Shown: positions 10,187 through 27,819 of the stretch, in pieces
Layout of the letters: each line of letters starts with the position of its first letter
Numbering within the stretch: the stretch's first letter is position 1
Origin: Escherichia phage EJP2
Sequence record: OQ411014.1
Strand: one strand, 5' to 3'
Length of the DNA stretch: 64,000 nt
Made by a program: the position numbers and the translations under genes
Notes under the pieces: model-generated
Seen by the model: only the letters and a program-made list of their open reading frames with translations
Told to the model about the DNA's origin: nothing
Databases searched by the model: none

Positions 10187-10492
10187 ATGATTGGTGTAAA
10201 TTGGAATATCATTGTATTATGTGTACCGTTGTTATTCATGACTATTGCAATGCTTGTCCGAATGTGGAAGCCCAGCATCACTGAAAAGGATATCGGATTC
10301 AATCCGCTGATTCAGCTACTCGACAATGTTTTATGTATGTGGGTAGTACTGGCATTCGTTTGGCTCTATGTATTCAATGAAGATTATCTAAACGCCAGAG
10401 CAGCACTGTATTCAATGATTGCACTTGGGTGGTTGTGGTTGACGTGCTTCACTATTCAAACTACAGTAAAGTTCTTTCAAAATAAGGGTTGA
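10187..10492 (+). CDS. hypothetical integral membrane protein
   Basis: 101 aa; three hydrophobic helices; stop codon inside terminator stem. Confidence 0.6.
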   Translation: MIGVNWNIIVLCVPLLFMTIAMLVRMWKPSITEKDIGFNPLIQLLDNVLCMWVVLAFVWLYVFNEDYLNARAALYSMIALGWLWLTCFTIQTTVKFFQNKG

Positions 10493-10511
10493 CTTCGGTC
10501 AACCTTTTTTG
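10485..10511 (+). terminator. rho-independent terminator (GGTTGAC-TTCG cassette family)
   Basis: agggttgac-ttcg-gtcaaccttttttg. Confidence 0.7.
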
Positions 10512-10557
10512 AGCCTAATTTTGGGAACTTGATCTAGATCAATGTACAGGAGTAGTA

Positions 10558-10884
10558 ATGAAAAAGATATTTTTCAGCACTTTAGTAGTACTGAGTTTGT
10601 TGTCTTTCAATGTTAGTGCTTTAGAGTGCATAGATGATGCCGATAATCATTACATCATTGAGCCAGGAGAAGAAGATTCAGTACTGATCAATAACACAGA
10701 GTTTTATAAACTCAATACGGAGGAATTCAAAGATACAGAGACAACCATTCATGATACTTGGTTACAGGATGAATCTGGAACCATTGCATTACTATCAGTA
10801 ATAACAACAAAGAAATCAAAAGAAGTTCAAACTAAACTGCACTTCGTCCAGGGAGATGAAATGTATAAGGGGATTTGTAAGTGA
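10558..10884 (+). CDS. putative secreted protein
   Basis: 108 aa; signal peptide MKKIFFSTLVVLSLLSFNVSA. Confidence 0.6.
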   Translation: MKKIFFSTLVVLSLLSFNVSALECIDDADNHYIIEPGEEDSVLINNTEFYKLNTEEFKDTETTIHDTWLQDESGTIALLSVITTKKSKEVQTKLHFVQGDEMYKGICK

Positions 10885-11186
10885 ATACAACACGCGTCAT
10901 AAACTATGTCATGGCAGACATGAAACAAGCGTACGAAGATGCATACGTACGTTACTTAGGGAAAGAGGAAGTTATTGCGACGCGAGTATACCTTGCATAT
11001 GAGATGAGTTGTTCTACACACCCTTCACTGAATAGCAAAGAAAACGCTAAGTTATTTCGTAAAGTAATTATTGACCACTACCGTAAAAACGGGTATCATA
11101 TCCCTAGTGTTATGAAACTCTTCATGAATGTGATTCCTTCTAAGTATTCAGTTCATGGGGACTACGAGCCATTAACCTTAGAGTGA
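10881..11186 (+). CDS. hypothetical protein
   Basis: 101 aa; 4-nt overlap with upstream gene. Confidence 0.6.
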   Translation: MNTTRVINYVMADMKQAYEDAYVRYLGKEEVIATRVYLAYEMSCSTHPSLNSKENAKLFRKVIIDHYRKNGYHIPSVMKLFMNVIPSKYSVHGDYEPLTLE

Positions 11187-11192
11187 TAAACC

Positions 11193-11525
11193 ATGCAACT
11201 AAGAGAAGTACCATTAGTCCTGCCAGTACTGGCAAATTGTGTAGTACTGTTGATATTTGTATACGCATTCTTTGAATGTTTGTGTCACTTATATGTAACA
11301 GGAAGATACAGAAACAAGTTCTTTGAGTACTCAAGAGTAGACGTAATTGCTTCAACATATTGTACGTTACTGTCGAGTACTTTGGTATGTGCTTTCTGTG
11401 TTTATATATTACCGGACACATATTTCGCATTGACTATGTGGGCTATGATATCTAATGGTGCTGCTTTGATGTACCTGATATACATCGTGGACTACTGGAA
11501 TCTAAAAAGAACTAAACGTATATGA
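11193..11525 (+). CDS. hypothetical integral membrane protein
   Basis: 110 aa; hydrophobic helices. Confidence 0.55.
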   Translation: MQLREVPLVLPVLANCVVLLIFVYAFFECLCHLYVTGRYRNKFFEYSRVDVIASTYCTLLSSTLVCAFCVYILPDTYFALTMWAMISNGAALMYLIYIVDYWNLKRTKRI

Positions 11526-11647
11526 TTTTATTCTTTATTTTATGTAGTACTGTAGTGTATACTCTCTTCGCTCCAAAGAAATCTACTATACAGATCTTGA
11601 GCGAAGAGATTAATAAATCCAAATCTAAATCCAATAAGGAGAAGTAA

Positions 11648-11899
11648 ATGTCACTACTTGCTTTTGTAGTACAAATGCTCATTGCAGTTTTAGTCGTACT
11701 TCCAGTACTGATCGCGTTATTCCGTGCTAAACAGGGTGTGTTCTTCGCAACAATGGGCTTGACATTTGTTATCCCAGTTGGACACCAAATCATCTTTGGT
11801 TCTTACGCAAACATGAGCAATACTGTACTAATTGTATATGGTGTATGTTATGTTACAGCACTAGCCCTCGCAATCTTCACTGAAGCAGATAAAGGATAA
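11648..11899 (+). CDS. hypothetical integral membrane protein
   Basis: 83 aa; two or three hydrophobic helices; RBS aaggagaag. Confidence 0.55.
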   Translation: MSLLAFVVQMLIAVLVVLPVLIALFRAKQGVFFATMGLTFVIPVGHQIIFGSYANMSNTVLIVYGVCYVTALALAIFTEADKG

Positions 11900-11903
11900 G
11901 AAC

Positions 11904-12407
11904 ATGCAACTAGAAAATTGGTTAGGATGGACTATCGTAGTAATATGTGTAGTACTGATGTATGCCCCACTAGTGCTGGTATTCGTCAAAACTAAAACAA
12001 TCTCAATGCTGCTTCTGTCAATGGCAATCATTGCTGGTGCAGTAGGTGCACTCTTCGGTCAAGCATCTCCTAAAATCAGTGCAGTATTGATGGTAATGAT
12101 TTGGGTAGTGATGTTGTTCGTTTCTCTCAAACTCATTTGGGCTGAGAAGGCTCCAATGTTTGAAGCTGATGAAAAGGGTAAGCGATGGTTCCTGTACTGC
12201 TTGAGTCATGATTTACGTGTACGCATTACTGACGGAAAGATTGAGTACTATCTAGGTGAAGTAGTAACGCTTGACGAAATTCTAAAAGTGTATAAACTAT
12301 CAGAACAGAATCATAATGCATTACTTGACCAGATTGAAGCTGAAGAGTTCGCAGAACATCGTGAACAAATCAAGAAGGACTTAGCTGATTTGCGTTGTGC
12401 AAACTAA
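11904..12407 (+). CDS. hypothetical membrane-anchored protein
   Basis: 167 aa; N-terminal hydrophobic helices, charged C-terminal half. Confidence 0.6.
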   Translation: MQLENWLGWTIVVICVVLMYAPLVLVFVKTKTISMLLLSMAIIAGAVGALFGQASPKISAVLMVMIWVVMLFVSLKLIWAEKAPMFEADEKGKRWFLYCLSHDLRVRITDGKIEYYLGEVVTLDEILKVYKLSEQNHNALLDQIEAEEFAEHREQIKKDLADLRCAN

Positions 12408-12413
12408 ACACTA

Positions 12414-12437
12414 GGGAACCGATGGGTTCCCTTTATT
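12414..12437 (+). terminator. rho-independent terminator
   Basis: gggaacc-gatg-ggttccc followed by tttatt. Confidence 0.65.
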
Positions 12438-12461
12438 AATCCAACACACATAGAGAACAAA

Positions 12462-12761
12462 ATGAATTACATCTTATCTGTCATCTTCTTCAGTACTCTA
12501 ATTGCGTATTCAGTCAATTCTTATAAAGAGAACATTGCACCAGATATGTATGAGTGTACAATAAATGTACAGTACGATACAGTACTGAAGACTAAGAAAG
12601 ATACGTTCACATCCACACGTCTGAACGAGATTGTAGACCACGGTGGTGCAATGCTGGGTGTTCATGTAGAAGATATGAAAGAAGATTCAGATTCATATAA
12701 AGGTGTAGTACTGAAATATGAAGACGTAGTTGGTGGTAGTGTAGTGTGTAACAGAATATAA
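12462..12761 (+). CDS. putative secreted protein
   Basis: 99 aa; signal-like N-terminus. Confidence 0.55.
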   Translation: MNYILSVIFFSTLIAYSVNSYKENIAPDMYECTINVQYDTVLKTKKDTFTSTRLNEIVDHGGAMLGVHVEDMKEDSDSYKGVVLKYEDVVGGSVVCNRI

Positions 12762-12776
12762 AAAGAGGTACGAGTG

Positions 12777-12950
12777 ATGAAAAAATGTACACTTTATGTA
12801 TTGGCTTTTAGTATCTTTGCTGTACTGACATATTTTTCATTTTCTATCAAAGAAAGTTCTTCCCTTTGGGTATTCGTTGTGTTAGAATTCTTTTCGTTGG
12901 CAGTGACAATGTTGTTCATCGAACTATATTGTCGTTACATTAAAACTTAA
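12777..12950 (+). CDS. hypothetical small membrane protein (57 aa)
   Basis: ATG after RBS aagagg; two hydrophobic helices; not in ORF track. Confidence 0.35.
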   Translation: MKKCTLYVLAFSIFAVLTYFSFSIKESSSLWVFVVLEFFSLAVTMLFIELYCRYIKT

Positions 12951-12964
12951 ATGAGATACTAACC

Positions 12965-13600
12965 ATGACTAAACAAGATATTTTCAAAACTGTAATCAAT
13001 GCTCTTCGGTCTGAAGAAGTTCGTTGTATGATGGAATACAACATCAATAAAGCCACTGACGCTATCGTTCCTGTTATTGAAGCTGCTGGCCTGGTGTTCG
13101 TTGGTATTGGTATGTATTCTGTCGTTGTGGAGCATCCTAAGTACCCTGGACGTGTGTTTAAGGTTAGTACTTCACGTTGGGATGGTTTCCGTGAGTACGC
13201 TAAGTACTGCAAAGATAACAGCAACAAACCATTTGTACCTGCTATCTATAGTGCTGAAGTTAAAGGTAACTTCGCATGGTATGAGATGGACAAATACTTC
13301 TCAATCATGAAGGCTGATGAATCTGATTTCGTAAGCAACAAAGCAGATGAAATGTATTCCTTTGCTAATGCTGGTCAGTACGGTTCATCTCTTCGTGAAG
13401 AGATGGATGTACAACAGGATCGTATGGATATCTACAACTTCGCTAAGGAGTTAGAAAGTGCATACGGTTCGCGTTTCACGCTGGACATTCACACTGGCAA
13501 TATCATGATGGATGTATTCGGTAACTTCTTTATCACTGACCCACTTGCTGGTGATTTACGCCGCGAGATTCCAGTACTGGAAGAAGATCCAGTATTCTAA
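12965..13600 (+). CDS. hypothetical protein with protein-kinase-like motifs
   Basis: 211 aa; Gly-loop-like GIGMYSV, Lys in VFKV ~15 aa later, catalytic-loop-like DIHTGNIMMD, DFG-like ITDP; unverified. Confidence 0.55.
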   Translation: MTKQDIFKTVINALRSEEVRCMMEYNINKATDAIVPVIEAAGLVFVGIGMYSVVVEHPKYPGRVFKVSTSRWDGFREYAKYCKDNSNKPFVPAIYSAEVKGNFAWYEMDKYFSIMKADESDFVSNKADEMYSFANAGQYGSSLREEMDVQQDRMDIYNFAKELESAYGSRFTLDIHTGNIMMDVFGNFFITDPLAGDLRREIPVLEEDPVF

Positions 13601-13609
13601 GGAGATATA

Positions 13610-13903
13610 ATGAAAGGTGCATTATTAGTAATTTTTGGAATGATTTTGATTTATTTTAGTGTTGACAAGTACACACAAAAGTCTGTACAATCAGTACCAG
13701 AAGCCCAAGAGACTTCACCAGTTCAGGAGCCACCAGCACCGGAACCTAAGTCCCAAGAGCAAGTACAAAACGAATACTACGCACATCACGTGTATCGTTT
13801 TAAAGATGACAAGTACAAAGTTATTTGCTGGCGTATCATGAATATGAACCATGCAGGTTTATCTTGTCTCCCTGAACATTTGGTAAACGAAAGGACCGAA
13901 TAA
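13610..13903 (+). CDS. hypothetical membrane-anchored, Pro/Gln-rich protein
   Basis: 97 aa; N-terminal TM helix then PEAQETSPVQEPPAPEP. Confidence 0.55.
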   Translation: MKGALLVIFGMILIYFSVDKYTQKSVQSVPEAQETSPVQEPPAPEPKSQEQVQNEYYAHHVYRFKDDKYKVICWRIMNMNHAGLSCLPEHLVNERTE

Positions 13904-14235
13904 TGAATATCATTTATCCTAACACAAGCACCAATTTTGATGACGTTGTAAGTGTTCTGAACAATAACAGTACTGTAACAATTCAGTTTCAGTTATCACC
14001 AAGTACTGGTCTTCTTGTGAAGAAAGAAGTATCCAAATACGTTGGCTATGAAAACCAAACTGTAATTGAAGTTTCGTTCTATGAAGATGATGCATCTGTG
14101 TTCGGTCGCATGTCATCTGGTACTGAAATTCATGCAGCAGATGAAGCACTATTAGTAGTGCGTGCACTAAAGGAACGCTTGGCTTCAACGTCACCAAGCG
14201 ATGTCAGTTCTATCTCTCTAGCTCGCGTGTGGTAA
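13903..14235 (+). CDS. hypothetical protein
   Basis: 110 aa; TAATG coupling. Confidence 0.55.
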   Translation: MNIIYPNTSTNFDDVVSVLNNNSTVTIQFQLSPSTGLLVKKEVSKYVGYENQTVIEVSFYEDDASVFGRMSSGTEIHAADEALLVVRALKERLASTSPSDVSSISLARVW

Positions 14236-14543
14236 ACGAAATGAAACAGGTTATTATTGCAACGTTTGTATTTTTACTATTCACTCCAGTAACTTATGCT
14301 GGTATCAATCTGGATTGTGTACTCACTAATTCATCTGGTGCAAAGATGCAGATCAATACCAGACAGACCTTTGGTGAATCTTATATTGAGTCAGATGCTT
14401 ATATCAACTTCAAAGCAGTGGACTTTGTTGAAGGCTCGTTCATCAACTCCAACATGGTACTGGATAAGATTACTCTCAAGGGAGTGTTCAGTACTCAAAA
14501 GGATAACGGTAAAACCCATCACGCAATGGTAGATTGTAACTAA
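14229..14543 (+). CDS. putative secreted protein
   Basis: 104 aa; signal peptide ...FTPVTYA. Confidence 0.55.
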   Translation: MVNEMKQVIIATFVFLLFTPVTYAGINLDCVLTNSSGAKMQINTRQTFGESYIESDAYINFKAVDFVEGSFINSNMVLDKITLKGVFSTQKDNGKTHHAMVDCN

Positions 14544-14638
14544 GAGGAAAGCTAAGTTATGACGTACTTATCTATTGCAGTTGTTGTATTTTTAGTTTTA
14601 GTCGTTTGTGCATTTGGGTATCTCATGACTAAAGGTGA

Positions 14639-14833
14639 TTGAATGTGAAATACATATTAGTCCTACTAGTATTATTCACTACATGCACAAATGCTAGTGC
14701 ATTGAAGGAGCAGAAATTCTTTGTATCCTTCTTTGCACCAGTACAAACGAAGCACATTAAATGGACGTATAATTCAAATCTACTAGAGTTGAATGAGCAC
14801 AGGATTGGATTCGTTATCAATTACGTGTGGTGA
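14639..14833 (+). CDS. putative secreted small protein
   Basis: 64 aa; signal-like N-terminus. Confidence 0.45.
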   Translation: MNVKYILVLLVLFTTCTNASALKEQKFFVSFFAPVQTKHIKWTYNSNLLELNEHRIGFVINYVW

Positions 14834-14856
14834 ATAACAATTCAGTACTGAAGAAT

Positions 14857-14882
14857 GGGTTGACTTAGGTCAGCCCTTTTGT
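14857..14882 (+). terminator. rho-independent terminator with embedded promoter elements (cassette family)
   Basis: gggttgac-ttag-gtcagccc + T-run; TTGACT then ttataaat 17-18 nt downstream. Confidence 0.65.
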
Positions 14883-14935
14883 TATAAATAACGGTATAGA
14901 AAAACACTATATGAAATCTATGGAGAGAAATCAAA

Positions 14936-16456
14936 ATGCCAAATGATATGAAACACAAGAATGGTGCATTAGTACAACACTCTGACAAATGGAGTGAAGC
15001 TAATCGTCGTAAGAATTCACACAACGCAGGCCAAGGATCTCGTGGCTCTCGCAATCAGGGGACTGGTGAAGCTGGTAAAGCTAATACAGTTGCTTCTGGT
15101 GGTATGGACACTTCCAATATGTCTCAACATGAGAAACTAAAGTACTTCAACAGTTTAGGACTCCTAAACCCTACACAGAAGAAGCAATTACAAGACATGG
15201 ACGCTGCTGCATCTGCACCAAAAGAACAGCCACAGCAAGCTCCTAAAGCTGCTCCTGCTGGTAATCCTGTCAAAGAGCTATCTGATAACTTAGGTCGTAT
15301 CTTTGCACAGAAGCCTAATCTAATTCAAGGTATTGTAAAAGAACTACAAGCAGTACCGAAGGAAGAGCTAAAGAGTAAAGCACAAGCTGTACTTGATGCT
15401 ATGAAAGGCAATCGCAGTACTGAACCAACCGAAGTATTCAGTACTATCATGCGTGCACTTCAAGCTAAACCACAAGCTGCTCCAGCACAGAAAGCACCTA
15501 AGATGGACAGTGCACAGGACATGTCAGATTTGTTTGGTAAAGTTGGTGCTGAAGGTAAGAACAACGCACAACAAGTCAAGAACGTCCAAGCTAAGATTAT
15601 TGATCGTTTAGGTGATAATCAAGACAAGACTAAGCGGGCATTTGACGCATTGAACAAAGCACTTGAATCTTATGTTCCTGGTGAGAAAGACAAGTTCCAG
15701 ACCATCATGAACGCAGTCTTTGGTGAAATGAAGAAGTACGAAGCAGAGCACGGTGAGAAGGTATCATCTGATGGCTATATGATTCGTAAAGACGAAGAAG
15801 GTGCAGTAGACCAGAAAGATGCTCCTAAAGAGCAAGAAGACCTACCTGATACAGTTGATATGGATGGTTACATTTCTCGTCCAGATGAATATGACTTCGG
15901 TTCAGACAAAGAAGGTTATGAGTATGCTATGGACATTTATCGTTTCCTAGCTAAGAACTATGATTATGCTAACAAGTACGTAGATCAGTTTGTCAGTGCT
16001 TGGGATAATTACAAAGATAAAGGTTATGACTTCCCTGCGGAAGCTGCATTCTTTGAGTTAGGTAAACTACTCCAGAAAGATGGTGTAGAGATTGGCTCGA
16101 AAGAAGATACTTCTAGTCTAGATGCAGAATTGGCAAAAGACCGTCAAATGACACCAGGTTCTAAAGCTGAATTGAATAAGCTCCTATCATGGATTGTTGA
16201 CATTGGTAAAAATGCTGGTAAAGATAACAAGAGTATCAACCGCAGTATTTCTTGGATCAATAATAAAATTGATAACAACGGGCGTAAGCTACAGAAAGCA
16301 TGGAGTGATTTAGTCAATGGTGCAGATGAGATCGATATTGATTCTCCTGAAGCATATGAGTATGCGATGACGACTCTAGACAATTCCTTCCAGGACTATG
16401 AAAATGGTAATCTAACTGCTAGTGAACAAGACATCATGCGTTCACACGGAAAATAA
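14936..16456 (+). CDS. hypothetical protein, low-complexity Lys/Ala/Gln-rich
   Basis: 506 aa, largest plus-strand ORF; repetitive PKxxxxAPA segments; acidic C-terminal part; RBS gagag. Confidence 0.65.
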   Translation: MPNDMKHKNGALVQHSDKWSEANRRKNSHNAGQGSRGSRNQGTGEAGKANTVASGGMDTSNMSQHEKLKYFNSLGLLNPTQKKQLQDMDAAASAPKEQPQQAPKAAPAGNPVKELSDNLGRIFAQKPNLIQGIVKELQAVPKEELKSKAQAVLDAMKGNRSTEPTEVFSTIMRALQAKPQAAPAQKAPKMDSAQDMSDLFGKVGAEGKNNAQQVKNVQAKIIDRLGDNQDKTKRAFDALNKALESYVPGEKDKFQTIMNAVFGEMKKYEAEHGEKVSSDGYMIRKDEEGAVDQKDAPKEQEDLPDTVDMDGYISRPDEYDFGSDKEGYEYAMDIYRFLAKNYDYANKYVDQFVSAWDNYKDKGYDFPAEAAFFELGKLLQKDGVEIGSKEDTSSLDAELAKDRQMTPGSKAELNKLLSWIVDIGKNAGKDNKSINRSISWINNKIDNNGRKLQKAWSDLVNGADEIDIDSPEAYEYAMTTLDNSFQDYENGNLTASEQDIMRSHGK

Positions 16457-16466
16457 GTAAAAATAA

Positions 16467-16491
16467 GGGTTGACATATGTCATCCCTTTTT
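16467..16491 (+). terminator. rho-independent terminator (cassette variant)
   Basis: gggttgaca-tatg-tcatccc followed by T5. Confidence 0.6.
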
Positions 16492-16535
16492 GTATCCTAT
16501 CAGTACTGAATTAATCCCAACTAAGGTGACAAAAC

Positions 16536-17897: not shown

Positions 17898-17907
17898 CAT
17901 CATAAAA

Positions 17908-17932
17908 GGGTTGACTTCGGTCAGCCCTTTCT
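17908..17932 (+). terminator. rho-independent terminator with embedded promoter elements (cassette family)
   Basis: gggttgac-ttcg-gtcagccc + tttct; TTGACT ... TATTAT downstream. Confidence 0.65.
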
Positions 17933-17966
17933 GTATTATACATACATCAACTGAGAGGATAATTAA

Positions 17967-18395
17967 ATGCGTGTATTTCGTTTTGAATTAAAATATTCTA
18001 TTCTTGAAGGTAAGTACAACTCTATCATTACTGGTATGGGACCATTCACATGGTACTACAAAGATTACAGTACTGAAGCTGGCTACCGTGCACTTGAAAT
18101 GAAAACGCTTGAAGAGTGTCAACCAGAGCCAGAGGATGATGGTATTCATGCTATTAAGAACGGATGGGCTTTTGGGTGTGACTCACTGGAATCGCTGTAT
18201 GAGTTCTTTAATGCTGATATCCAGGCTTTGAGTGCTGCTGGGTTTGCAGTGTCTGAATATGAAGTTCCTTATCAGCACGTAGACATTGGTCTACATCAAG
18301 TACAGTACTACAAAAAGAGTGCACAATTGCTAGCTATCCATGATGTGAATGAAATATTCAAATCAGTACTTGACAATTGTACTGTTCAGTACTAA
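17967..18395 (+). CDS. hypothetical protein
   Basis: 142 aa; RBS gagagga. Confidence 0.6.
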   Translation: MRVFRFELKYSILEGKYNSIITGMGPFTWYYKDYSTEAGYRALEMKTLEECQPEPEDDGIHAIKNGWAFGCDSLESLYEFFNADIQALSAAGFAVSEYEVPYQHVDIGLHQVQYYKKSAQLLAIHDVNEIFKSVLDNCTVQY

Positions 18396-19641: not shown

Positions 19642-19677
19642 AAGAAAAAAGGAGACTTTGTAGTCTCCTTTCTTTTT
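19641..19677. terminator. bidirectional rho-independent terminator between convergent genes
   Basis: A-run, hairpin aaaggagact-ttgt-agtctccttt, T-run. Confidence 0.7.
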
Positions 19678-20854
19678 ATGGTAAATCAAATTCCGTATAT
19701 GAATATTTGTATACACCATCTGGTCCACGACCTGAGTATCGTAATTTACCAGAAGTAGTTATATATGCTGAAGTAATATTACTAGTACTGAATATGTTAA
19801 ACACTGACTTCATATCATTCACTGTACCGTTACCGAATGGTATCAGGTTAAGTTCATTGCCGTTGACACCAGTACTCAATCTTCCTGAAGAATTTGCTCC
19901 ACAACCATATGCATTTGATGGGCTAAGAGCAACGTAACCAGTATTACTAGTATAATAACTTAGTAAACCAATAAAATTCTCTGTAGTGGCTATTTCAGTA
20001 AAGACTCTAATATTGACAGAACTATTCACTCCATTACCTAAGTTTCCAGCATTCTGGCTTCCCGCAGCATATAGATGTGTTTTACCAGTACCGTCACTGT
20101 ACAATATTGTGAATGCTGATTCAGTTAGACCAATATCAAAAACACTAAGACCTGGGTCTGGTAGTGGTACTTGTGTTAGCACATTTATTCTTGTATCTGG
20201 ATGACCAATACCGAGTTGACCAAATGAGTTTGAACCTGAAACCCAAACACTTAAATCATTTTTTAATATCAGTACTGATGAATTAACAAATTCAACTTTT
20301 TGAACATCTGATGTAAGTTTTGAGAAAGTAGTTAGTGCAAGATAATTACCAGTTGCTAGTTGGCCTTGGTTATTAAAACCGCTTCTATAAAGATCACCAT
20401 TGTTCATTAATATATATAATGCATATACACCAGCATGAACAGATGTTATTTGATTAAGATTCCCTGTACCTATACCAGCTTCAATAAATGGGGTACAATC
20501 AGTATATGATGTCACAACTTCAGTAGATGATGTATTGCCAGTTTGAAAGCTACGGCGACCAGTATATAATAATTTTCCATCCATAGTTTTAATGATAACA
20601 AAACTTGTGTTTGTACACCAAACATCTTGAACATCATCTCTGATTAAAGTCCACTCTAGCTTTTGTTCTGTTGGCTTTCCATCCCCATAGATATAATTAT
20701 CAACTGTTCCTCCACCGATACCATACAATCTGTTATCATCATATAATACCATAAATGCCGGACGAGACGATGCATAAGGTACTAATATTTTTGTAATTTC
20801 AGGTAATGAAGGTGCTTTATTACCATAATTAAGCATTCGTACAAAAGGTAACAT
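19676..20854 (-). CDS. RCC1-like beta-propeller protein, N-terminal MLPFVRMLNYGN (distal member of paralog family)
   Basis: 392 aa; motifs WVSGSNSFGQLGIGH and YRSGFNNQGQLATGN; conserved leader/N-terminus shared with array at 33.4-50.4 kb. Confidence 0.8.
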   Translation of the reverse strand: MLPFVRMLNYGNKAPSLPEITKILVPYASSRPAFMVLYDDNRLYGIGGGTVDNYIYGDGKPTEQKLEWTLIRDDVQDVWCTNTSFVIIKTMDGKLLYTGRRSFQTGNTSSTEVVTSYTDCTPFIEAGIGTGNLNQITSVHAGVYALYILMNNGDLYRSGFNNQGQLATGNYLALTTFSKLTSDVQKVEFVNSSVLILKNDLSVWVSGSNSFGQLGIGHPDTRINVLTQVPLPDPGLSVFDIGLTESAFTILYSDGTGKTHLYAAGSQNAGNLGNGVNSSVNIRVFTEIATTENFIGLLSYYTSNTGYVALSPSNAYGCGANSSGRLSTGVNGNELNLIPFGNGTVNDMKSVFNIFSTSNITSAYITTSGKLRYSGRGPDGVYKYSYTEFDLP

Positions 20855-21731: not shown

Positions 21732-21759
21732 TTGACACACAATGGGAGTACTGTATAAT
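21732..21759 (+). promoter_or_regulatory. sigma70-type promoter
   Basis: TTGACA-N16-TATAAT. Confidence 0.65.
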
Positions 21760-21791
21760 ACTCCCATCTTAACGACAAAAGAGGAATTGAA

Positions 21792-21941
21792 ATGGAACGT
21801 GTATACTTGAACGTAATCACTGGTGCTAAACGTAAGTTCATCGGCAAAGAAGGATATTTCTGGATGAACAATAAGCAGTGGGTTCCTAATGGTACATCAG
21901 AAGAACTCATCAAAGCATTACCATATTACAAAGTACTCTAA
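21792..21941 (+). CDS. hypothetical small protein (49 aa)
   Basis: ATG 7 nt after RBS gaggaa, downstream of promoter; not in ORF track. Confidence 0.4.
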   Translation: MERVYLNVITGAKRKFIGKEGYFWMNNKQWVPNGTSEELIKALPYYKVL

Positions 21942-21958
21942 CTATAGGAATCAATCCC

Positions 21959-22606
21959 ATGCTCAAAGATATATCAATTGATGTAGATGCACTGAATGAA
22001 GAGTACAAAGATAAAGGGATTGATTTTTTTGAAACCGTAAGGGAAAACCCAATTAATGGTTCAAAACTACAAGTTACAATGGGAGTTGTTAATCCATTAC
22101 ATCCAGCAATACAGGCAAAGAAACTACCTATTAGTACTAAACCAATACGCCTTATGCTCGCGGCACATTGTAGTACTGGTATCTATATGGGATTCCCATT
22201 ACATGAAACTATTCGCAAGTACAGCAAAAGCGAAGTTGTTTCTCGTATGGTTGAGTTTGATTTGAGTACTGGAATGTGGTATGATTCTCATGAAGTGGCA
22301 CAGTCCTTCAATGAGAAGGAATTACCTTCTGGAAAGGCTCCTGCCGATATTACTCGCTTGAGTAGTTCTTATGGTTTAGCTGATAACATCAAGCAAATCA
22401 TCAAGCACTACAGAAAAGTAATTAACAGGAGTGACTTCAATGTAGTGCTGCATATTACGTACAACAATGAAAAGCAACTGGCTGGATTGCGTTGGCATAA
22501 ATGCGGGAAGTACTTGGGTAAGCATAAACAGAAGCACGAATACTTAGAAGAAGATAATATAAAGAGTATTCTACAATTCCACCTTTATGTACTGAAGGAG
22601 GACTAA
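21959..22606 (+). CDS. hypothetical protein
   Basis: 215-aa ORF. Confidence 0.6.
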   Translation: MLKDISIDVDALNEEYKDKGIDFFETVRENPINGSKLQVTMGVVNPLHPAIQAKKLPISTKPIRLMLAAHCSTGIYMGFPLHETIRKYSKSEVVSRMVEFDLSTGMWYDSHEVAQSFNEKELPSGKAPADITRLSSSYGLADNIKQIIKHYRKVINRSDFNVVLHITYNNEKQLAGLRWHKCGKYLGKHKQKHEYLEEDNIKSILQFHLYVLKED

Positions 22607-22765
22607 ATGAATCATGATAAGATTCAAGAAATTGAAGAGAAGCGTAATCACTTAAACGCACTCACGTATGAAATGACACAGACTGCTGATGTGGTGATGG
22701 GAGTATTATCAACATCCGCAGTTCTTTCAGTACTGATAGCGATTTATATATTTTTCTTGTCATGA
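22607..22765 (+). CDS. hypothetical small protein with C-terminal TM helix (52 aa)
   Basis: ATG directly after upstream stop with RBS aaggagg; not in ORF track. Confidence 0.4.
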   Translation: MNHDKIQEIEEKRNHLNALTYEMTQTADVVMGVLSTSAVLSVLIAIYIFFLS

Positions 22766-22831
22766 AGTGTTTGACAATCTTAGTATCATCTAGTATGATG
22801 TTTGTACTATAATGATATAAGGAAATACAAA

Positions 22832-23077
22832 ATGAAATTTATTAGTGCAATTATTCTTTCGATGACTTTATTGGTTGGATGTTCAACTGATTTCATGAAA
22901 GAAGCATACGTTGGTGAAGTGAATGGACGTACAATCGTCTTCTTCAAAGATATCCAACGTAACGGTATGCAGTACTACACTCCGCAGTTTGCATCTGTAT
23001 GCCGTGATATGTTCGGGGTAAGTTCACCATGTAGGATAAAAGAAACTGCAATCAAAAACATTCGTCCATACAAATAA
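22832..23077 (+). CDS. putative lipoprotein
   Basis: track ORF starts at TTG 22802; ATG at 22832 follows RBS aaggaaa; signal peptide with lipobox LLVGC. Confidence 0.55.
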   Translation: MKFISAIILSMTLLVGCSTDFMKEAYVGEVNGRTIVFFKDIQRNGMQYYTPQFASVCRDMFGVSSPCRIKETAIKNIRPYK

Positions 23078-23088
23078 GGAAACACAAT

Positions 23089-23412
23089 ATGTTTATTCTT
23101 TCTTTCCCACTGTTCGTTCTGCTTATCTGTTATATTGCAGTAGTAGCAGTAGGTTCTAAGTACAAAGATCTCCCTGAATATCTGAACATTGGTGACGGTC
23201 AAACAAATTCGCTACGCTTTGTTCTGGGTGCAACGTTTGTATCATTAGGGTTCCAAATTCTTGGTCTGTTCTTTGCGTTTGCAATTAGTCTAGGACTGTT
23301 GTTTTCAACTATTGCTTCAGTCCTTGCGTGGTGGTGGTTGTTTGAAACATTCCAGTCTGGTAAGATCAAGATCTGGTACAAAGATGCTAAAGCATATTTC
23401 GATCAGGACTAA
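23089..23412 (+). CDS. hypothetical integral membrane protein
   Basis: 107 aa; three hydrophobic helices. Confidence 0.6.
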   Translation: MFILSFPLFVLLICYIAVVAVGSKYKDLPEYLNIGDGQTNSLRFVLGATFVSLGFQILGLFFAFAISLGLLFSTIASVLAWWWLFETFQSGKIKIWYKDAKAYFDQD

Positions 23413-23467
23413 TTGATTCATTGTTTCATCGGGGTTAACATGTGTTAGCCCTTTTTTGTAGGTAATA

Positions 23468-23851
23468 ATGCGAGCGATGATTAGTATAGATAAGAAAGGT
23501 GCAACTCGGATTGTATTCTTGACGAAGAGATACGCAATCAAGATACCATCTTTCTATTCGTGGAAAATGTTCTTACATGGATTGATTGCTAATCTAAATG
23601 AAAGAGCATTCAAAGAGTACTCATGTTCTCCTGGTTCTGGATTATGCCCTACTGTATATGCGTCAGGAACGGGTCTAATAAGCATTCAGAAGAGATGTTT
23701 ACCAGTACAGCACAGAGGTATGTTCTGGGTGGAATTGGCTCACCTAGCGTGCAGTACTGTACTACATGAGGACTTCTTTTATTCGGATGCGAAGCCTGAG
23801 AACTTCGGGTATATAGATGGGAAGTTAGTAAAATTGGATTACGGAGATTGA
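23468..23851 (+). CDS. hypothetical protein
   Basis: 127-aa ORF. Confidence 0.5.
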   Translation: MRAMISIDKKGATRIVFLTKRYAIKIPSFYSWKMFLHGLIANLNERAFKEYSCSPGSGLCPTVYASGTGLISIQKRCLPVQHRGMFWVELAHLACSTVLHEDFFYSDAKPENFGYIDGKLVKLDYGD

Positions 23852-23852
23852 T

Positions 23853-24041
23853 ATGCTAATTTACAATAACAATGGTATTAGAGTACTTCAGCATGAATAC
23901 TTACAAGTGTTTCATGTACAGAAGTTCATGGAGGGTGATAATCCTCGGAGCTATGGTCGTACGATGGATTACTTCACTGTAAAGGAATGCTATAGTATTC
24001 AAGAAGTTCGTGAAGTTGTATCTGAATTACTTGAAGAATAA
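23853..24041 (+). CDS. hypothetical protein
   Basis: 62-aa ORF. Confidence 0.5.
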   Translation: MLIYNNNGIRVLQHEYLQVFHVQKFMEGDNPRSYGRTMDYFTVKECYSIQEVREVVSELLEE

Positions 24042-24050
24042 TATTAGAAA

Positions 24051-24076
24051 GGGGTTGACTTCGGTCGGCCCTTTTT
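24051..24076 (+). terminator. terminator-promoter cassette
   Basis: ggggttgac-ttcg-gtcggccc + T5; TTGACT then TTATAAT ~18 nt downstream. Confidence 0.65.
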
Positions 24077-24116
24077 GTTATAATCATTACATCGACAACC
24101 AATAGGAAATCTAAAA

Positions 24117-24779
24117 ATGCCAATTCCATTGTTTCATGAAAGTAATACATTCACTATCTACAAAAATAATGGCGAACTGAAGACTATTCACTTCACTGGT
24201 CACAAAGTAGGTTTGTATTACAAGTTGTATTCAATCCTACGTAAGAGTCACAACTTCAATATGCCTTCAGTAACTGTACGTGATATTACAGGGCGGGTAT
24301 TATCCAATGGAAACTTCTTGGATATCTATTTTGAGTTGATTGATGTATTGAAAGCAGAACACAAGTACTCAATCATGACGACCAATAGTGTTGGTGAAGA
24401 TCTATATCACTTCCGTGATGAACCTGAAGGTGTACTGCAACAACTGAAGCATCTGAGAGATACATATACTAAAAATGGTGATCCGCGTCGTTTTGAATAT
24501 CACACAGTAGTACGAAGAGATGACTCATCGTTTATTCGTAACAAGTTGGATTATTTGATTATAGAATACCAGAAAATTGCTGATGCAGAGAACTCAGAGA
24601 AAGCTGGCGAAACCGACTGCATTGGTGAAACTGGCGAAATGGGGTTAGGTGTGTACCTGGAGTTCGATGAAGTAGTGAACGATATGCGTGAGCAAATCAA
24701 ATCAGGTACTGACAAAGAGAAGATTGAAGCTAAAGCAGTACTGTCATATATCGCTACTAAAATAGCACTGAAACAGTAA
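24117..24779 (+). CDS. hypothetical protein; C-terminus paralogous to 19045-19641
   Basis: 220 aa; RBS aggaaa. Confidence 0.6.
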   Translation: MPIPLFHESNTFTIYKNNGELKTIHFTGHKVGLYYKLYSILRKSHNFNMPSVTVRDITGRVLSNGNFLDIYFELIDVLKAEHKYSIMTTNSVGEDLYHFRDEPEGVLQQLKHLRDTYTKNGDPRRFEYHTVVRRDDSSFIRNKLDYLIIEYQKIADAENSEKAGETDCIGETGEMGLGVYLEFDEVVNDMREQIKSGTDKEKIEAKAVLSYIATKIALKQ

Positions 24780-24785
24780 AATAAA

Positions 24786-24811
24786 AGGGTTGACTTCGGT
24801 CGGCCCTTTTT
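24786..24811 (+). terminator. terminator-promoter cassette
   Basis: gggttgac-ttcg-gtcggccc + T5 then TATAAT. Confidence 0.65.
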
Positions 24812-24849
24812 GCTATAATCATTTCAACTTCTGATGAAAGGAAAATTAT

Positions 24850-25098
24850 ATGTTCGCACTACGCCACAAAGAAACAAAGAACTTCATGTGTATTGATACA
24901 CAGTGGGATTGCTTTGGTAGTACTGAAGTATTGGAAGAACACGCTGAGAACGTCTTTGTTGTTAGTGAACGTTCATTGTTGGAAGCACTAATTGAGGACT
25001 TCAATGCTGGTACTAATGCATTCTCTCTGAACTTTCCGGTTGTTGCAGATCCAGAAGCATTTGTTATGTACGAAATTGTAGAACTTACTGTGAAATAG
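24850..25098 (+). CDS. hypothetical protein
   Basis: 82 aa; RBS aaggaaa. Confidence 0.55.
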   Translation: MFALRHKETKNFMCIDTQWDCFGSTEVLEEHAENVFVVSERSLLEALIEDFNAGTNAFSLNFPVVADPEAFVMYEIVELTVK

Positions 25099-25115
25099 TA
25101 TCATTGGAGATAACC

Positions 25116-25412
25116 ATGAAAGCACTGACCGCCGTAGAAATCAAAGAGCAATACAAAGATTTATTCGAGTTTAAACACAACGGTGAAGAATTCAAACGTA
25201 GTAGTACTGTACGTGACTTCTTGAACAAACTCTTCTGTACTAAGTTCAAAGCTGCGTACATTACTATGCCTGAGCGTACTTCAAGTGCAGAAGATATCAA
25301 GAAGTTCGGTTTAGGTTGGGATGCACAATCAATCATCCTGGTGAATGCAGATGAAGAGCTAGTGTACTTGACTAACTCCGAGTGGGCTTCTTTCATGTAT
25401 CTTCGTAAATAA
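25116..25412 (+). CDS. hypothetical protein
   Basis: track ORF starts at TTG 25104; ATG at 25116 follows RBS ggagataa (98 aa). Confidence 0.55.
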   Translation: MKALTAVEIKEQYKDLFEFKHNGEEFKRSSTVRDFLNKLFCTKFKAAYITMPERTSSAEDIKKFGLGWDAQSIILVNADEELVYLTNSEWASFMYLRK

Positions 25413-25421
25413 GGAACTATA

Positions 25422-25604
25422 ATGAAACTGAAACGTTATGACCGCAATCGTATTATGGATGCTTTGTATCGTGAAGAAATTTCACTCAATAAGGTGAAAG
25501 TGTACTTTATGTTAGAAGGACGGCTTCCAGCACGTAAAGCTAAACAGTTAGCTATTGAACTGTTGAACGAAGGTATTGAGTACTGGCATTATGACGGATA
25601 TTGA
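25422..25604 (+). CDS. hypothetical small protein
   Basis: 60 aa; RBS aaggaa. Confidence 0.5.
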   Translation: MKLKRYDRNRIMDALYREEISLNKVKVYFMLEGRLPARKAKQLAIELLNEGIEYWHYDGY

Positions 25605-25616
25605 TTTGTGAAATAA

Positions 25617-25645
25617 AAGGTTGACTTCGGTCAGCCTTTTTCGTA
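25617..25645 (+). terminator. terminator-promoter cassette (near-identical copies at 27457 and 27751)
   Basis: aaaggttgac-ttcg-gtcagccttttt then cgTATTATgtactcatcgaaacgaaggag. Confidence 0.7.
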
Positions 25646-25680
25646 TTATGTACTCATCGAAACGAAGGAGATATAAAAAA

Positions 25681-25917
25681 ATGAAACTATCTTTTATACG
25701 ATTGGGTCAATTCTTCGGTACTAATGTTATAACTTTACAACAAATTGCAGATAATACATCTCTAACGATTCAAGAAGTACTTGACTTGGATGACATAAAT
25801 TACGATACTACATGTATCGAGTACAAAGAAGGTCTTATCGAAAAGGATAAGATTCAGGCTAAAATTAATGGTGCTGGAAAAGTTCAGTACTGGAAGGGAG
25901 TGTTAAGTAATGTGTAA
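25681..25917 (+). CDS. hypothetical protein
   Basis: track ORF starts at TTG in terminator (25621); ATG at 25681 follows RBS aaggag (78 aa). Confidence 0.5.
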   Translation: MKLSFIRLGQFFGTNVITLQQIADNTSLTIQEVLDLDDINYDTTCIEYKEGLIEKDKIQAKINGAGKVQYWKGVLSNV

Positions 25918-27007
25918 CTTTGATGTTTTAGATTGTTTTTCTGTAGATGAAATTATTTATGAACCCAAATCACATAATTCAGTATCCCCAGGGCAATATG
26001 AAAAGAAAATAACAGAGTTATTTTCATTAAATGATCATAATGTTGTTTTTATCGGATTCAATATGAAAACCGCCAATGAATGGCAAGCGGGTGATACTAA
26101 AGTACATTTTAAACTCGTCAACAAATATTACGAGGATATTTTTTCTGATGTGACAATAGAAAAGATTATCAAAAAATTTAAGAAAAAAACCTACAAACCT
26201 AAACATAAAAAATTAACAATGGAAATTATTGAATATCAGGCCAAGGCTGTATCTTACTTAAAAGGCCATCGGATTATATCATTTGGTCCATTTGATGGTG
26301 CACTCACTAAAATTGAGATGGAATGTCTAATGGATTCACATACGTGGTCTACCAGTTACAATTCATATGTGACAAATGACAAAGGTTGTGTTAAATGTGG
26401 AATTGTAGTGACCTCTGAGTTTCACCGGACAAATCACGATGATGTGAACTTGTTCTTAAAAGAAAATGGAGATATTAACAATTATGATTTATATGAAGAA
26501 TTCATATATTCTAATAATTTAACAATAATAAAAAGAATTTGCAAAATATGTAATCATGGTAAATGTGGAGAATGGAAAACGTCTTATGAATGCATTAAGA
26601 ATCGTGATCATCAGTGTCCAGTATGTAAGACAACTGAAGCTCGGTGCATCAAACGTGATCTAGATCCGATTTTTAGTGGGTTCGGTGTGGTAGAATGTGA
26701 AAAAAAATATGATGATTGTAGGATGATTAATCATTTACGCTACGACCGCTTCATCCCGAAACTCAACATGTTATTTGAATATGATGGAGAGCAACATTTC
26801 AATAAGAGGAACATTCGTTGGCATGGTGAAAGTGGTGAAAAACGTGATCAAATAAAAACAGAGTTCGCAATCAACAACGGTTACAACTTCATTAGGATTG
26901 CATACTATGAAGACCACGTTGCAGTACTGGAATCTTTCCTTAAACTCATAGAAGAGAACCCAGGAAAGCAAATCGTACAGATCTATGGTGATGTGAAAAT
27001 TATCTAA
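25910..27007 (+). CDS. Cys-rich zinc-finger protein with C-terminal DUF559/Vsr-like endonuclease-fold motif
   Basis: 365 aa; CxxC clusters (CKICNHGKCGEW, CPVCKTTEARC); C-terminal FEYDGEQHF...RDQIKTEF...GYNFIRIAYYE resembles the EVDGxQH motif of DUF559 proteins. Confidence 0.6.
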   Translation: MCNFDVLDCFSVDEIIYEPKSHNSVSPGQYEKKITELFSLNDHNVVFIGFNMKTANEWQAGDTKVHFKLVNKYYEDIFSDVTIEKIIKKFKKKTYKPKHKKLTMEIIEYQAKAVSYLKGHRIISFGPFDGALTKIEMECLMDSHTWSTSYNSYVTNDKGCVKCGIVVTSEFHRTNHDDVNLFLKENGDINNYDLYEEFIYSNNLTIIKRICKICNHGKCGEWKTSYECIKNRDHQCPVCKTTEARCIKRDLDPIFSGFGVVECEKKYDDCRMINHLRYDRFIPKLNMLFEYDGEQHFNKRNIRWHGESGEKRDQIKTEFAINNGYNFIRIAYYEDHVAVLESFLKLIEENPGKQIVQIYGDVKII

Positions 27008-27013
27008 AATAAA

Positions 27014-27038
27014 AGGTTGACTTCGGTCAGCCTTTTTG
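27014..27038 (+). terminator. terminator-promoter cassette
   Basis: aggttgac-ttcg-gtcagcct + T5 then TATTAT. Confidence 0.65.
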
Positions 27039-27181
27039 CTATTATATCAGTACTATCAATGTGAAAGAGTTCGATAAACATCTGAAGAAGAATGGCTTCG
27101 ATACGAACAACTTTGCTATCAGTAGTATTACTGAAATCATGATTCAATACAACATTATTGTAGATACATTACGAGGGTAAA

Positions 27182-27448
27182 ATGAAACCAATCACAACAA
27201 CACAGAGTACTAACCTAACGGTTTTACATGATGGTTTAAAAGGTACAGTACGTGATCTTCTGAACTTCATTGATAGTATTCAAGGTGATACCGGATACTG
27301 CATTTATACTACTATCATTCCTGGTGGTACAGAACTGTACTTCACCAATATGGAAGTATCGGAATCGGGTGAAACTGATGATTCATTCCAAGAAGCCATC
27401 CAACAATTTCAGGAATCCTTAGAGGATTTAGGTTTTACGGTACAATGA
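27182..27448 (+). CDS. hypothetical acidic protein
   Basis: 88-aa ORF. Confidence 0.55.
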   Translation: MKPITTTQSTNLTVLHDGLKGTVRDLLNFIDSIQGDTGYCIYTTIIPGGTELYFTNMEVSESGETDDSFQEAIQQFQESLEDLGFTVQ

Positions 27449-27456
27449 CGAAAAAA

Positions 27457-27481
27457 AGGTTGACTTCGGTCAGCCTTTTTC
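27457..27481 (+). terminator. terminator-promoter cassette
   Basis: ggttgac-ttcg-gtcagcc + T5 then cgtattatgtactcatcgaaacgaaggag. Confidence 0.65.
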
Positions 27482-27750
27482 GTATTATGTACTCATCGAA
27501 ACGAAGGAGATTATTATGTATATTTTAATAGTGGAGTACTGCTTCTATACTCTATGGATTTACTTAGGTTGTCGATATGGCTTACCTTTATTTGGTAAGT
27601 ACTTCTTAGATTCTGGTTCAGACAAATATGGCGAGAGAAATGACTAAAGGAATGCAGAAGTTAAACTGTTCGTGAAAACTCAAGACTGGCCTGAAGTTGT
27701 ACAGCAAGTAATATGTTCATTCACTAAGACTGAACTAATATAAGAAAAAA

Positions 27751-27775
27751 TGGTTGACTTCGGTCAGCCTTTTTC
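27751..27775 (+). terminator. terminator-promoter cassette
   Basis: ggttgac-ttcg-gtcagcc + T5 then cgtattatgtactcatcgaaacgaaacg. Confidence 0.65.
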
Positions 27776-27819
27776 GTATTATGTACTCATCGAAACGAAA
27801 CGTACTAAGGATTAAGAAA

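Follow-up and report, generated by a model that had tools for sequence, protein, structure and literature searches.

Can one short stretch of phage DNA end the transcription of one gene and restart it for the next? This question is raised by an element of about 50 nt that recurs in a 64,000-nt stretch of the genome of Escherichia phage EJP2 (sequence record OQ411014.1), which was analysed as a whole and is referred to here as the window. The window matches the RaK2/121Q-like jumbo coliphages (Asteriusvirus and relatives, among them Turkey5, 121Q and PBECO4; 350-380 kb) in patches, at 70-90% identity. In the repeated element, termed the cassette, the 5' arm of a terminator-like hairpin is also the -35 hexamer of a promoter-like sequence. 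Judged by its sequence, the cassette is probably a dual-function signal of the early transcription programme of these phages, which would be carried out by host RNA polymerase with sigma-70.

A repeated cassette in a block of small genes

Both strands of the window were scanned with GGGTTGACTTCGGTCAGCCC, allowing up to three mismatches, and 100 dinucleotide-preserving shuffles served as the null. Ten matches were found, all on the plus strand (10486, 14857, 17908, 24052, 24787, 25618, 27014, 27457, 27751 and 61229), and there were no matches in any of the 100 shuffles. A looser pattern and an nhmmer profile of the window added two copies, at 16467 (with the loop variant GGGTTGAC-ATAT-GTCATCCC) and at 6293 (TGCTTGAC-TTCG-GTCGAGCA). 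The window thus holds 12 strong copies, all on the plus strand, of the general form A-tract/GGGTTGAC-TTCG-GTCAGCCC/T-run. The original prediction, made from the sequence of the window, had located its copies to within 1 nt and had missed the one at 6293. A degenerate relative, in which TTAAC replaces TTGAC, lies at 23431. On the minus strand, the sole pattern match and the profile hits are reverse readings of plus-strand copies, and the minus-strand gene block contains no cassettes.

Eleven of the 12 copies fall between 6.3 and 27.8 kb, in a plus-strand block of small open reading frames (ORFs), most of which have no homologue in Turkey5 or 121Q; none falls between 28 and 61 kb. All 12 are intergenic and co-oriented with the genes. 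Each cassette starts within a few bases of the upstream stop codon, which is embedded in the A-rich tract, so that the stems lie within about 12 nt of the stops; such tracts with TAA stops precede the stems as in TAAAATAAAAGG. Downstream, a Shine-Dalgarno sequence and an ATG follow in 10 of the 12 copies, with the start codon about 32-52 nt past the first base of the -10 hexamer. Units bounded by cassettes measure 0.3 to about 6 kb and comprise 1 to about 13 genes. The trio that had been singled out as near-identical (25617, 27457 and 27751) proved to be so: copies 25618 and 27457 do not differ over about 57 nt, and copy 27751 has 48 nt in common with them, including the leader GTACTCATCGAAACGAA.

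The cassette does not appear to be a host element, because a 58-nt query gave no match at E<=0.1 among 5,426 complete Escherichia coli genomes, a strict threshold in a database of 28 Gb. Scans of the whole window gave no Rfam hits at the gathering thresholds and no tRNAs with ARAGORN.

Probable termination and initiation on the same nucleotides

The 5' arm of the stem supplies a -35 hexamer, TTGACT, with TTGACA in copy 16467 (16470). As had been predicted for a stem arm of TTGAC(T), a -10-like hexamer follows at a spacing of 17-18 nt in 11 of the 12 copies of the window. This hexamer is TATTAT (five of six consensus positions) in seven copies, TATAAT (six of six) in two and TATAAA (five of six, without the final T) in one, and it is preceded by TG, forming an extended TGn element, in five. 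To avoid a choice of copies that already favours a promoter, an unbiased sample was drawn from IMG/VR viral contigs by the 15-nt hairpin core alone, with counts taken among the matches listed; about half of the exact 15-mer matches are chance occurrences within high-GC coding sequence and formed a negative control. With a -10 defined as at least four of six positions, including A2 and T6, at 16-18 nt, a -10 is present in 44 of the 47 completed hairpins with a T-run, compared with 3 of the 70 chance or coding matches. The window, Turkey5, 121Q and viral contigs together supplied a wider set of 109 unique cassettes. A -10 accompanies 93 of these, solely at 17 (n=50) or 18 nt (n=43), and TGn is found in 67 of the 93. 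Phage groups with different discriminators (the sequence from -10 to +1) also keep the -10. By these counts the hairpin almost never occurs apart from a correctly spaced, often extended -10, a near-obligatory coupling that would be hard to explain by a terminator alone.

The other half of the cassette looks like an intrinsic terminator, in which a GC-rich, short-looped stem of 5 bp or more is immediately followed by a U-run and lies behind a gene on the transcribed strand. The stem comprises 7-8 bp with an A-U extension, capped by a 4-nt loop and followed by 4-6 T (three, in TTTC, in copy 17908). The stable tetraloop hairpin and T-run that had been recognized at the outset bore up in folding, with sense RNA of the 12 copies at -11.4 to -17.7 kcal/mol and four or more T in 11 of the 12; antisense RNA folds 2.5-10 kcal/mol more weakly in 11 of the 12. 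Across the 109 cassettes, the loop is TTCG in 72, giving C(UUCG)G with its closing C-G pair, a very stable RNA tetraloop motif. Facing the first T of TTGAC, 84 cassettes have G and 22 have A, so that G.U is preferred to A-U by about 4:1. The third stem layer is G-C in 74, A-T in 19 and G-T in 6, with pairing combinations reported in 105 of the 109, and the outer layers vary mostly among combinations that pair (GGG/CCC, AGG/CCT, GGA/TCC, GC/GC). An A-run precedes the stem, and a T-run follows it in all 109, with an information content of 1.6-2.0 bits in the sample drawn by the hairpin core. Wobble is tolerated in RNA and not in a symmetric DNA site, and the element is therefore strand-specific; the G.U preference and the dominance of UUCG thus speak for a hairpin formed in the sense-strand RNA and support the dual terminator and promoter reading. 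The G is presumably favoured because an A here would place another GGTTGAC on the opposite strand, and with it an antisense -35 and a full antisense terminator.

From these features, a mechanism can be proposed in which we infer both termination and initiation. In the upstream RNA, GGG-UUGAC-UUCG-GUCAG-CCC would fold as a hairpin capped by C(UUCG)G, with GGG and CCC as the clamp of the stem, and would be followed by four to six U; hairpin and U-run would then act as an intrinsic terminator or attenuator that ends the upstream unit just past its stop codon. In the DNA, TTGAC would serve as both 5' arm and -35, with the first T of the loop completing TTGACT, while the other loop bases, the 3' arm and the T-run would fill the 17-18 nt spacer before an extended -10 of the form TGn-TATTAT or TGn-TATAAT. 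Transcription would restart about 7 nt past the -10, often at CATC(G/A)A, and a leader of 20-45 nt would hold the Shine-Dalgarno sequence of the next gene. The A-tract may act as a UP-like element and could also pair with the U-run. The proximal-subsite consensus of UP elements is AAAAAARNR, which we take AAAAAAGGG to fit. Upstream transcripts would thus end within the spacer of the next promoter, and new transcripts would escape termination by their own hairpin because their start lies downstream of it. Use of host sigma-70 at early times is suggested because of the consensus sequence and the genomic context. The original prediction of a modular punctuation element is borne out to the extent that the cassettes appear to mark operon boundaries, with hairpin and -10 coupled across phages; the cassettes do not punctuate every gene.

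Several observations weigh against this mechanism. The -10 reaches four of six positions in copies 6296 (TAATAT) and 16470 (TATCCT), and copy 10489 (the copy at 10486) has only CCTAAT at spacing 19, which is no convincing -10. Since copies within a genome and among relatives are related, 44 of 47 and 84:22 overstate the number of independent events. The U-tracts are short, at 3-6 T, because they are confined within the 17-18 nt spacer of the promoter, and termination may be partial or incomplete as a result. A literature search found no RNA-end or transcriptome data for Asteriusvirus, RaK2-like phages or close relatives.

The simplest alternative is that the cassettes are plain intrinsic terminators, in which TTGAC and a TATAAT-like hexamer are incidental products of AT-rich intergenic DNA and of the copying of one repeat. 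Exactly these hairpins are annotated solely as terminators in the paper on the related phage CBB and in GenBank records of relatives, copy 10489 and the relative at 23431 lack a usable promoter, and promoter-like hexamer pairs in the window overall do not exceed the shuffles (74 and 71.9). Incidental hexamers are nevertheless very unlikely, given the difference between completed hairpins and controls in the sample chosen by the core alone, the restriction of the spacing to two values, the frequency of TGn and the persistence of the -10 in unrelated phage groups with differing discriminators; moreover, most terminators of other sequence in the window lack such hexamers at that spacing. It is just as improbable that the palindrome TTGAC-N4-GTCA is a DNA operator at which a phage or host repressor shuts off early transcription, with no RNA terminator involved. 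An inverted repeat over the -35 is the classical layout of an operator, and the phage genome includes genes for a sigma factor and for putative regulators. However, the palindrome is systematically imperfect, with a G facing the T in 84 of 109 cassettes, and at two positions in copies 24052 and 24787, and the loop favours the RNA-stability motif C(UUCG)G (72 of 109). The stem is flanked by an A-run before it and invariably by a T-run after it, and changes in the outer stem are mostly compatible with pairing, so that wobble, loop and stem would all favour an RNA terminator over a DNA operator.

Finally, the hairpin may serve mainly as a 3' stabilizer or processing barrier that protects the upstream mRNA from 3' exonucleases, rather than as a site of release. 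The position of a stable UUCG hairpin directly after the stop codon is in keeping with such a role, as are the short U-tracts of some copies, for example TTTC in 17908. A pure stabilizer, on the other hand, would need no U-tract, while four or more T follow the stem in 11 of the 12 copies and the run is near-invariant more widely; in addition, reporter assays showed termination at the stem-loops of comparable elements (Arbiol et al., 2010; PMC2839356). This explanation has perhaps a slightly better chance than the previous two and is still improbable as a complete account, and the roles of stabilizer and terminator are not mutually exclusive.

Promoter early stem-loops and the spread of the cassette

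The cassette follows a design that is already known from T4-like phages, the promoter early stem-loop (PeSL), and extends that idea. Repeated PeSLs were described in phages RB49 and phi1, where they consist of an AT-rich region, a consensus sigma-70 promoter and a stem-loop, with a Shine-Dalgarno sequence and start codon downstream (Arbiol et al., 2010; PMC2839356). Their stem-loops, which may overlap the -35 or the -10 or sit between them, cut lacZ read-through about as well as rrnB T1, their promoters were active in lacZ reporters, and recombination between PeSLs gave mini-circles (Arbiol et al., 2010; PMC2839356). PeSLs were later extended to the pairs T4/PST and KVP40/nt-1, and those of KVP40/nt-1 have a stem of the form A3-4 G3-loop-C3 T3-4 and a promoter TTGYVH-N17-TAWWAT (Comeau et al., 2014; PMC4122927).

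Like the PeSLs of RB49 and phi1, the cassettes are repeated intergenic composites concentrated among small ORFans, and a role in recombination has been proposed for both. The window has sigma-70-like -35 and -10 hexamers about 17 nt apart and a stable stem-loop within one short intergenic element, in many conserved copies and in a hyperplastic region of small ORFans. One PeSL subclass also places the stem-loop over the -35, as in the window; the usual place of the stem-loop in RB49 and phi1, however, is between -35 and -10 or over the -10, whereas in the window it always lies over the -35. The stems of RB49 and phi1 are polyG-loop-polyC, while that of the window is built on TTGAC itself, and activity and mini-circles were shown by experiment in those phages, whereas the cassette is known from its sequence. 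PeSLs have been described in T4-type myoviruses, a host range of the element that is not strictly defining, whereas the phage of the window is a RaK2/121Q-like phage of about 350 kb and lies outside the Straboviridae. The closest likeness in sequence comes from the KVP40 species: in phi-pp2, AAAAAAAGGGTTGACTTCGGTCAGCCCTTTCTTGTATTAT...ATCGAAACGAAAC after rIIB is nearly the same as the cassette of the window, including the +1 region, although the KVP40/nt-1 group comprises Vibrio phages of about 245 kb with 1-3 copies per genome close to the exact cassette sequence. Compared with E. coli signals, the cassette has the GC-rich stem, tetraloop and U-run of a canonical terminator and the TTGACT, 17-18 nt spacer, TGnTATAAT and A-tract 5' of the -35 of a UP/extended -10 sigma-70 promoter. 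It differs from both in that the two signals use the same nucleotides and the U-tract is held to about five by the spacer.

Within the clade of the window, the elements have been recorded differently. The CBB paper described RaK2-like phages as only distantly related to T4 and inferred that the region homologous to the block of small ORFs is an early host-takeover region, with RpoD-like promoters and UP-like elements. In CBB, GAP32 and PA5oct, as in the window, this region combines small ORFs with a sigma-factor gene and was inferred to be early. The papers on these phages list the hairpins solely as terminators and the RpoD-like promoters as separate sites; the CBB supplement gives GGGTTGACTTCGGTCAGCCC four times, only as rho-independent terminators, and GenBank records of the relatives Munch and UE-S1 likewise annotate these sites as terminators. 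The PA5oct paper reported TTGAC/TATAAT promoters around transcription start sites. The words stem-loop and PeSL do not occur in the CBB paper, which mentions neither a dual nature nor a link to PeSLs, and the literature search found no description of the composite element in the RaK2-like clade. To the PeSL idea, the present analysis adds that such elements are present and clustered in RaK2-like jumbo phages, that the coupling of the hairpin with a -10 is near-obligatory, that the stem is asymmetric in its G.U pairing and that unrelated phage families carry nearly identical cassettes.

This near-identity is seen with a 66-nt cassette query, which found 412 places in 151 phage records. Carriers include all RaK2-like phages (121Q, PBECO4, RaK2, K64-1, GAP32, Serratia BF, Yersinia fHe-Yen9-04 and Erwinia phages), KVP40-like vibriophages, Vequintavirinae/Certrevirus, the 50-kb Yersinia phage PY100 and Brochothrix A9 (Herelleviridae), which has a Gram-positive host. 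In 121Q, seven of the eight exact-core copies among the matches listed lie at 98.7-112.7 kb of the 348-kb genome. The predicted start CATCGAAAC(GAAAC), found in the window at 25655, 27494, 27788 and 61267, is common to the cassettes of four Gram-negative phage groups, namely RaK2-like phages, KVP40-like phages, Vequintavirinae/Certrevirus and PY100, whose discriminators differ; in Brochothrix A9, the 20-nt hairpin is identical and TATTAT is present, but the leader differs and the CATCGAAAC motif is absent. The start CATCGAAAC(GAAAC) occurs in 5 of the 47 unbiased copies, against about 0.006 expected. We know of no promoter or terminator rule that requires such a start, which could be an initial transcribed sequence or a leader element.

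Two explanations of this spread can be considered. Convergence is plausible because, once TTGAC is in the stem, the 3' arm, C(UUCG)G, the clamp and the T-run are nearly forced. Beyond an optimal design reached by convergence, the cassette could also be a horizontally mobile regulatory module that carries nearly the same 50-60 nt across unrelated families of virulent phages, in which case recombination at the cassette would move single genes between contexts, and perhaps between phage families, in the manner of gene cassettes. The value of CATCGAAAC as a marker of common descent is weakened, as plain sigma-70 consensus promoters of the same block, which lack the hairpin, also have a CATC start context, CATC(A/T), and discriminators differ between families. 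These two observations favour functional constraint over recent transfer, and the mobile module is therefore a tentative proposal that we regard as unlikely.

Individual copies, gene exchange and neighbouring sequences

The copies differ in how completely they preserve the two halves. The most upstream cassette, 6284..6333 (+), has the stem TGCTTGAC-TTCG-GTCGAGCA with a short T-run and folds at -13.4 kcal/mol; its -10 (copy 6293/6296) is either TAATAT at spacing 17 (four of six) or TATAAT at spacing 20, and the next gene starts at 6365. The cassette at 10477..10521 (+) has a perfectly palindromic stem, GGGTTGAC-TTCG-GTCAACCT, and T6, with the poor -10 noted above and the TGA stop of the upstream ORF inside TTGAC, and is probably terminator-only or a decayed half-cassette. 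The relative at 23431..23457 (+), GGGGTTAAC-ATGT-GTTAGCCC with a T6 run, has a spoiled -35 and no -10 in its downstream sequence, and is also probably terminator-only. At 14849..14894 (+), a cassette with the loop TTAG and the -10 TATAAA at spacing 17 precedes a 506-aa gene at 14936, a homologue of a 121Q gene annotated as 'virion structural protein'. The loop variant GGGTTGAC-ATAT-GTCATCCC occupies 16457..16506 (+) and combines a perfect -35, TTGACA, with the -10 TATCCT at spacing 17 (four of six). The exact 20-mer consensus is found at 17899..17948 (+), with TATTAT at spacing 17, a fold of -16.8 kcal/mol and the +1 region CATCAAC, before a gene at 17967 that belongs to family F14.

Stems with two G.U pairs, GTCGGCCC, characterize the next two cassettes. 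The one at 24042..24091 (+) has TGt and TATAAT at spacing 18, folds at -17.7 kcal/mol and comes after an F18 gene, as it does in Turkey5 and 121Q, with a different next gene in the window; the one at 24777..24824 (+) has TGc and TATAAT at spacing 18. The outlying cassette at 61220..61268 (+) shows compensatory stem changes, GGATTGAC-TCCG-GTCAGTCC, with TGc and TATTAT and a fold of -17.7 kcal/mol; no ORF follows directly, and the downstream stretch is conserved and non-coding.

The remaining cassettes lie at the edges of similarity to Turkey5. Only three blocks match Turkey5 at 90% or more, 24838-25666 (97%), 27006-27505 (98.8%) and 27744-28592 (90%), and five of their six ends are at cassettes. 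The first block begins just past cassette 24777..24824 and ends at 25609..25666 (+), a cassette with the -10 TATTAT and the leader GTACTCATCGAAACGAAGGAG. This cassette is also the left edge of a module, 25667..27005 (+), that contains a small ORF and a 365-aa gene and is replaced in Turkey5 by an unrelated 540-aa DUF4379 gene and in 121Q by a different 487-aa gene. Homologous DNA of the 365-aa gene (25910-27007, +) is annotated as HNH/homing endonuclease in relatives, and the gene may encode a free-standing homing endonuclease equipped with a cassette of its own. The second block begins at cassette 27004..27052 (+; TGc and TATTAT).

The cassette at 27447..27505 (+), which is the same as 25618 over about 57 nt, and that at 27741..27819 (+), whose leader CATCGAAACGAAACGTACTAAGGATTAAGAAA extends to the ATG at 27820 of a 256-aa gene with a weak P-loop/AAA match, form the left and right direct repeats around a 238-bp module (27506..27743, +). 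This module holds a 43-aa ORF (27516-27647) and a spacer between near-identical cassettes and is absent from Turkey5. In an alignment, the Turkey5 cassette L001:23680 consists of the left flank of window 27457, the common core and the right flank of window 27751. A recombinant junction of this kind is what recombination within the repeat would leave behind; conversely, a circle with the ORF and one cassette could have been inserted. In Erwinia phage Hallingskeid, a homologue of the 43-aa ORF lies within an uninterrupted operon, and the ORF therefore exists elsewhere without flanking cassettes. Additionally, the order F18/cassette/F14 of Turkey5 and 121Q is split in the window into F18/cassette/new gene and F8/cassette/F14. 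Identity of 48-57 bp between otherwise unrelated genes would thus allow occasional insertion, deletion or swapping of cassette-bounded modules by homologous recombination, as proposed for PeSLs.

A competing explanation attributes the mosaicism to homing-endonuclease mobility, illegitimate recombination or ordinary exchange in flanking genes, with the cassettes merely marking boundaries. The replaced module contains an HNH/homing-endonuclease-like gene, which could move by its own mechanism. Cassette-linked breakpoints were not significantly enriched in a gene-adjacency test of the window against Turkey5/121Q (Fisher p=0.48), in which nearly all junctions are breaks of synteny (34 breaks and 3 conserved among those without a cassette); the test lacks power because mosaicism makes almost every junction a break. 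The same test between Turkey5 and 121Q gave an odds ratio of 2.3 (p=0.26), and none of the four differences in this region between 121Q and PBECO4 (98% identity) is at a cassette. All of these points weigh against a general role of the cassettes. On the other side stand the insertion at 27506-27743 between direct repeats with 48-57 identical nt, the Turkey5 junction, which is the exact chimera expected, and the ends of the Turkey5 blocks, five of six at cassettes though only 11 of about 81 gene junctions have one. The competing explanation accordingly falls only a little short of an even chance. The earlier suggestion of duplication or recombination of cassettes has gained one clean chimeric junction, while its wider application drew no significant adjacency test; the cassette-linked differences from Turkey5 amount to one clean cassette-flanked insertion and one replacement. 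Cassette-mediated shuffling is therefore real in at least one case and unproven as a general driver, and how frequently such recombination occurs is a matter of inference.

Other features of the window were noted alongside the cassettes. A gene of the sigma-70 family (4574-5566, +; 330 aa) matches Pfam regions 2 and 3, with no match to region 4 reported; its homologues are annotated as 'RNA polymerase sigma factor' in 121Q/PBECO4 and as 'RNA polymerase sigma factor RpoS' in Turkey5. On the minus strand, a tandem array of about 14 RCC1-like beta-propeller paralogues of 300-465 aa each spans 33386-50396, and a stray copy (19676-20854, -) lies inside the plus-strand block. The gaps of the array (35711-48136, -) have their own repeated cassette, (ATA)CCAGTACTGAAATACGTACTGG(TAT), T5-7, GTAAATAC(A/T)TTATAAT, GGAG and ATG, a terminator-promoter-like arrangement in which a hairpin with AGTACT-containing arms is followed by TAAATA/TATAAT. 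The latter element resembles the late-type ATAAATA motif described in CBB and GAP32, and a similar AGTACT hairpin appears among the terminators of the CBB supplement.

The palindrome AGTACT is itself in excess, with 294 occurrences in the window (for example at 733, 1141, 14843, 16501 and 37004) against about 22-24 expected. The longer CAGTACTG occurs 104 times against about 1 expected, and TTCAGTAC and GTACTGAA occur 59 and 50 times against 1-2. The excess is about 11-fold in coding DNA (3.7 per kb, in all codon phases), the density in non-coding DNA is 9.2 per kb, and an 8-10-fold excess is also found in Turkey5, 121Q, RaK2, GAP32 and other RaK2-like loci. It is absent from the cassette-carrying loci of other phage groups (viral contigs of 235 kb and 149 kb and Brochothrix A9), and the literature search found no explanation for it. 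Other 6-bp palindromes are missing from the window (AAGCTT, 0 against 21 expected; CAGCTG, CCATGG and AGCGCT, 0 against 7.6 each), which suggests avoidance of restriction sites.

Around the outlying cassette, the transcript from 61229 (61268-61470) would contain CTAGCCCACCGGGTGC...GCTGGTGGCTAG, and the motif AGCCCAYNGGGTGC downstream of the cassette is conserved in 121Q and three other contigs. A structured RNA at this site was considered and rejected, with unconvincing folding z-scores of -1.45 and -1.94 and no Rfam hits. The E. coli Chi sequence GCTGGTGG lies at 61314 and is also found further downstream of two related cassettes (the L077 and L095 copies), and two more promoter-like sites lie between this region and the gene at 61528. 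The same part of the window is rich in GTACTTGC, with 16 occurrences against 0.9 expected, almost all at 53-64 kb (53295-63868, for example 61340-61380). It stands in the context AAAAAGTACTTGC, about 17 nt and TATAAT, which is conserved in 121Q and other RaK2-like contigs and may represent a second class of promoter with a non-sigma-70 -35.

For the RaK2/121Q-like phages, the cassettes would provide a ready-made map of the operons of the early region, marking where host polymerase starts and stops in poorly understood genomes of about 350 kb, and would correct the existing annotation of the clade, in which these sites are recorded as terminators only. Two signals are compressed onto the same nucleotides, with nearly every base used in both hairpin and promoter; this double role is probably the reason for the near-identical sequences that unrelated phages have reached or have in common, and it makes the cassette useful as a compact building block in phage design and synthetic biology. 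If the role in recombination is also true, the cassettes would be the seams along which these phages exchange accessory genes.

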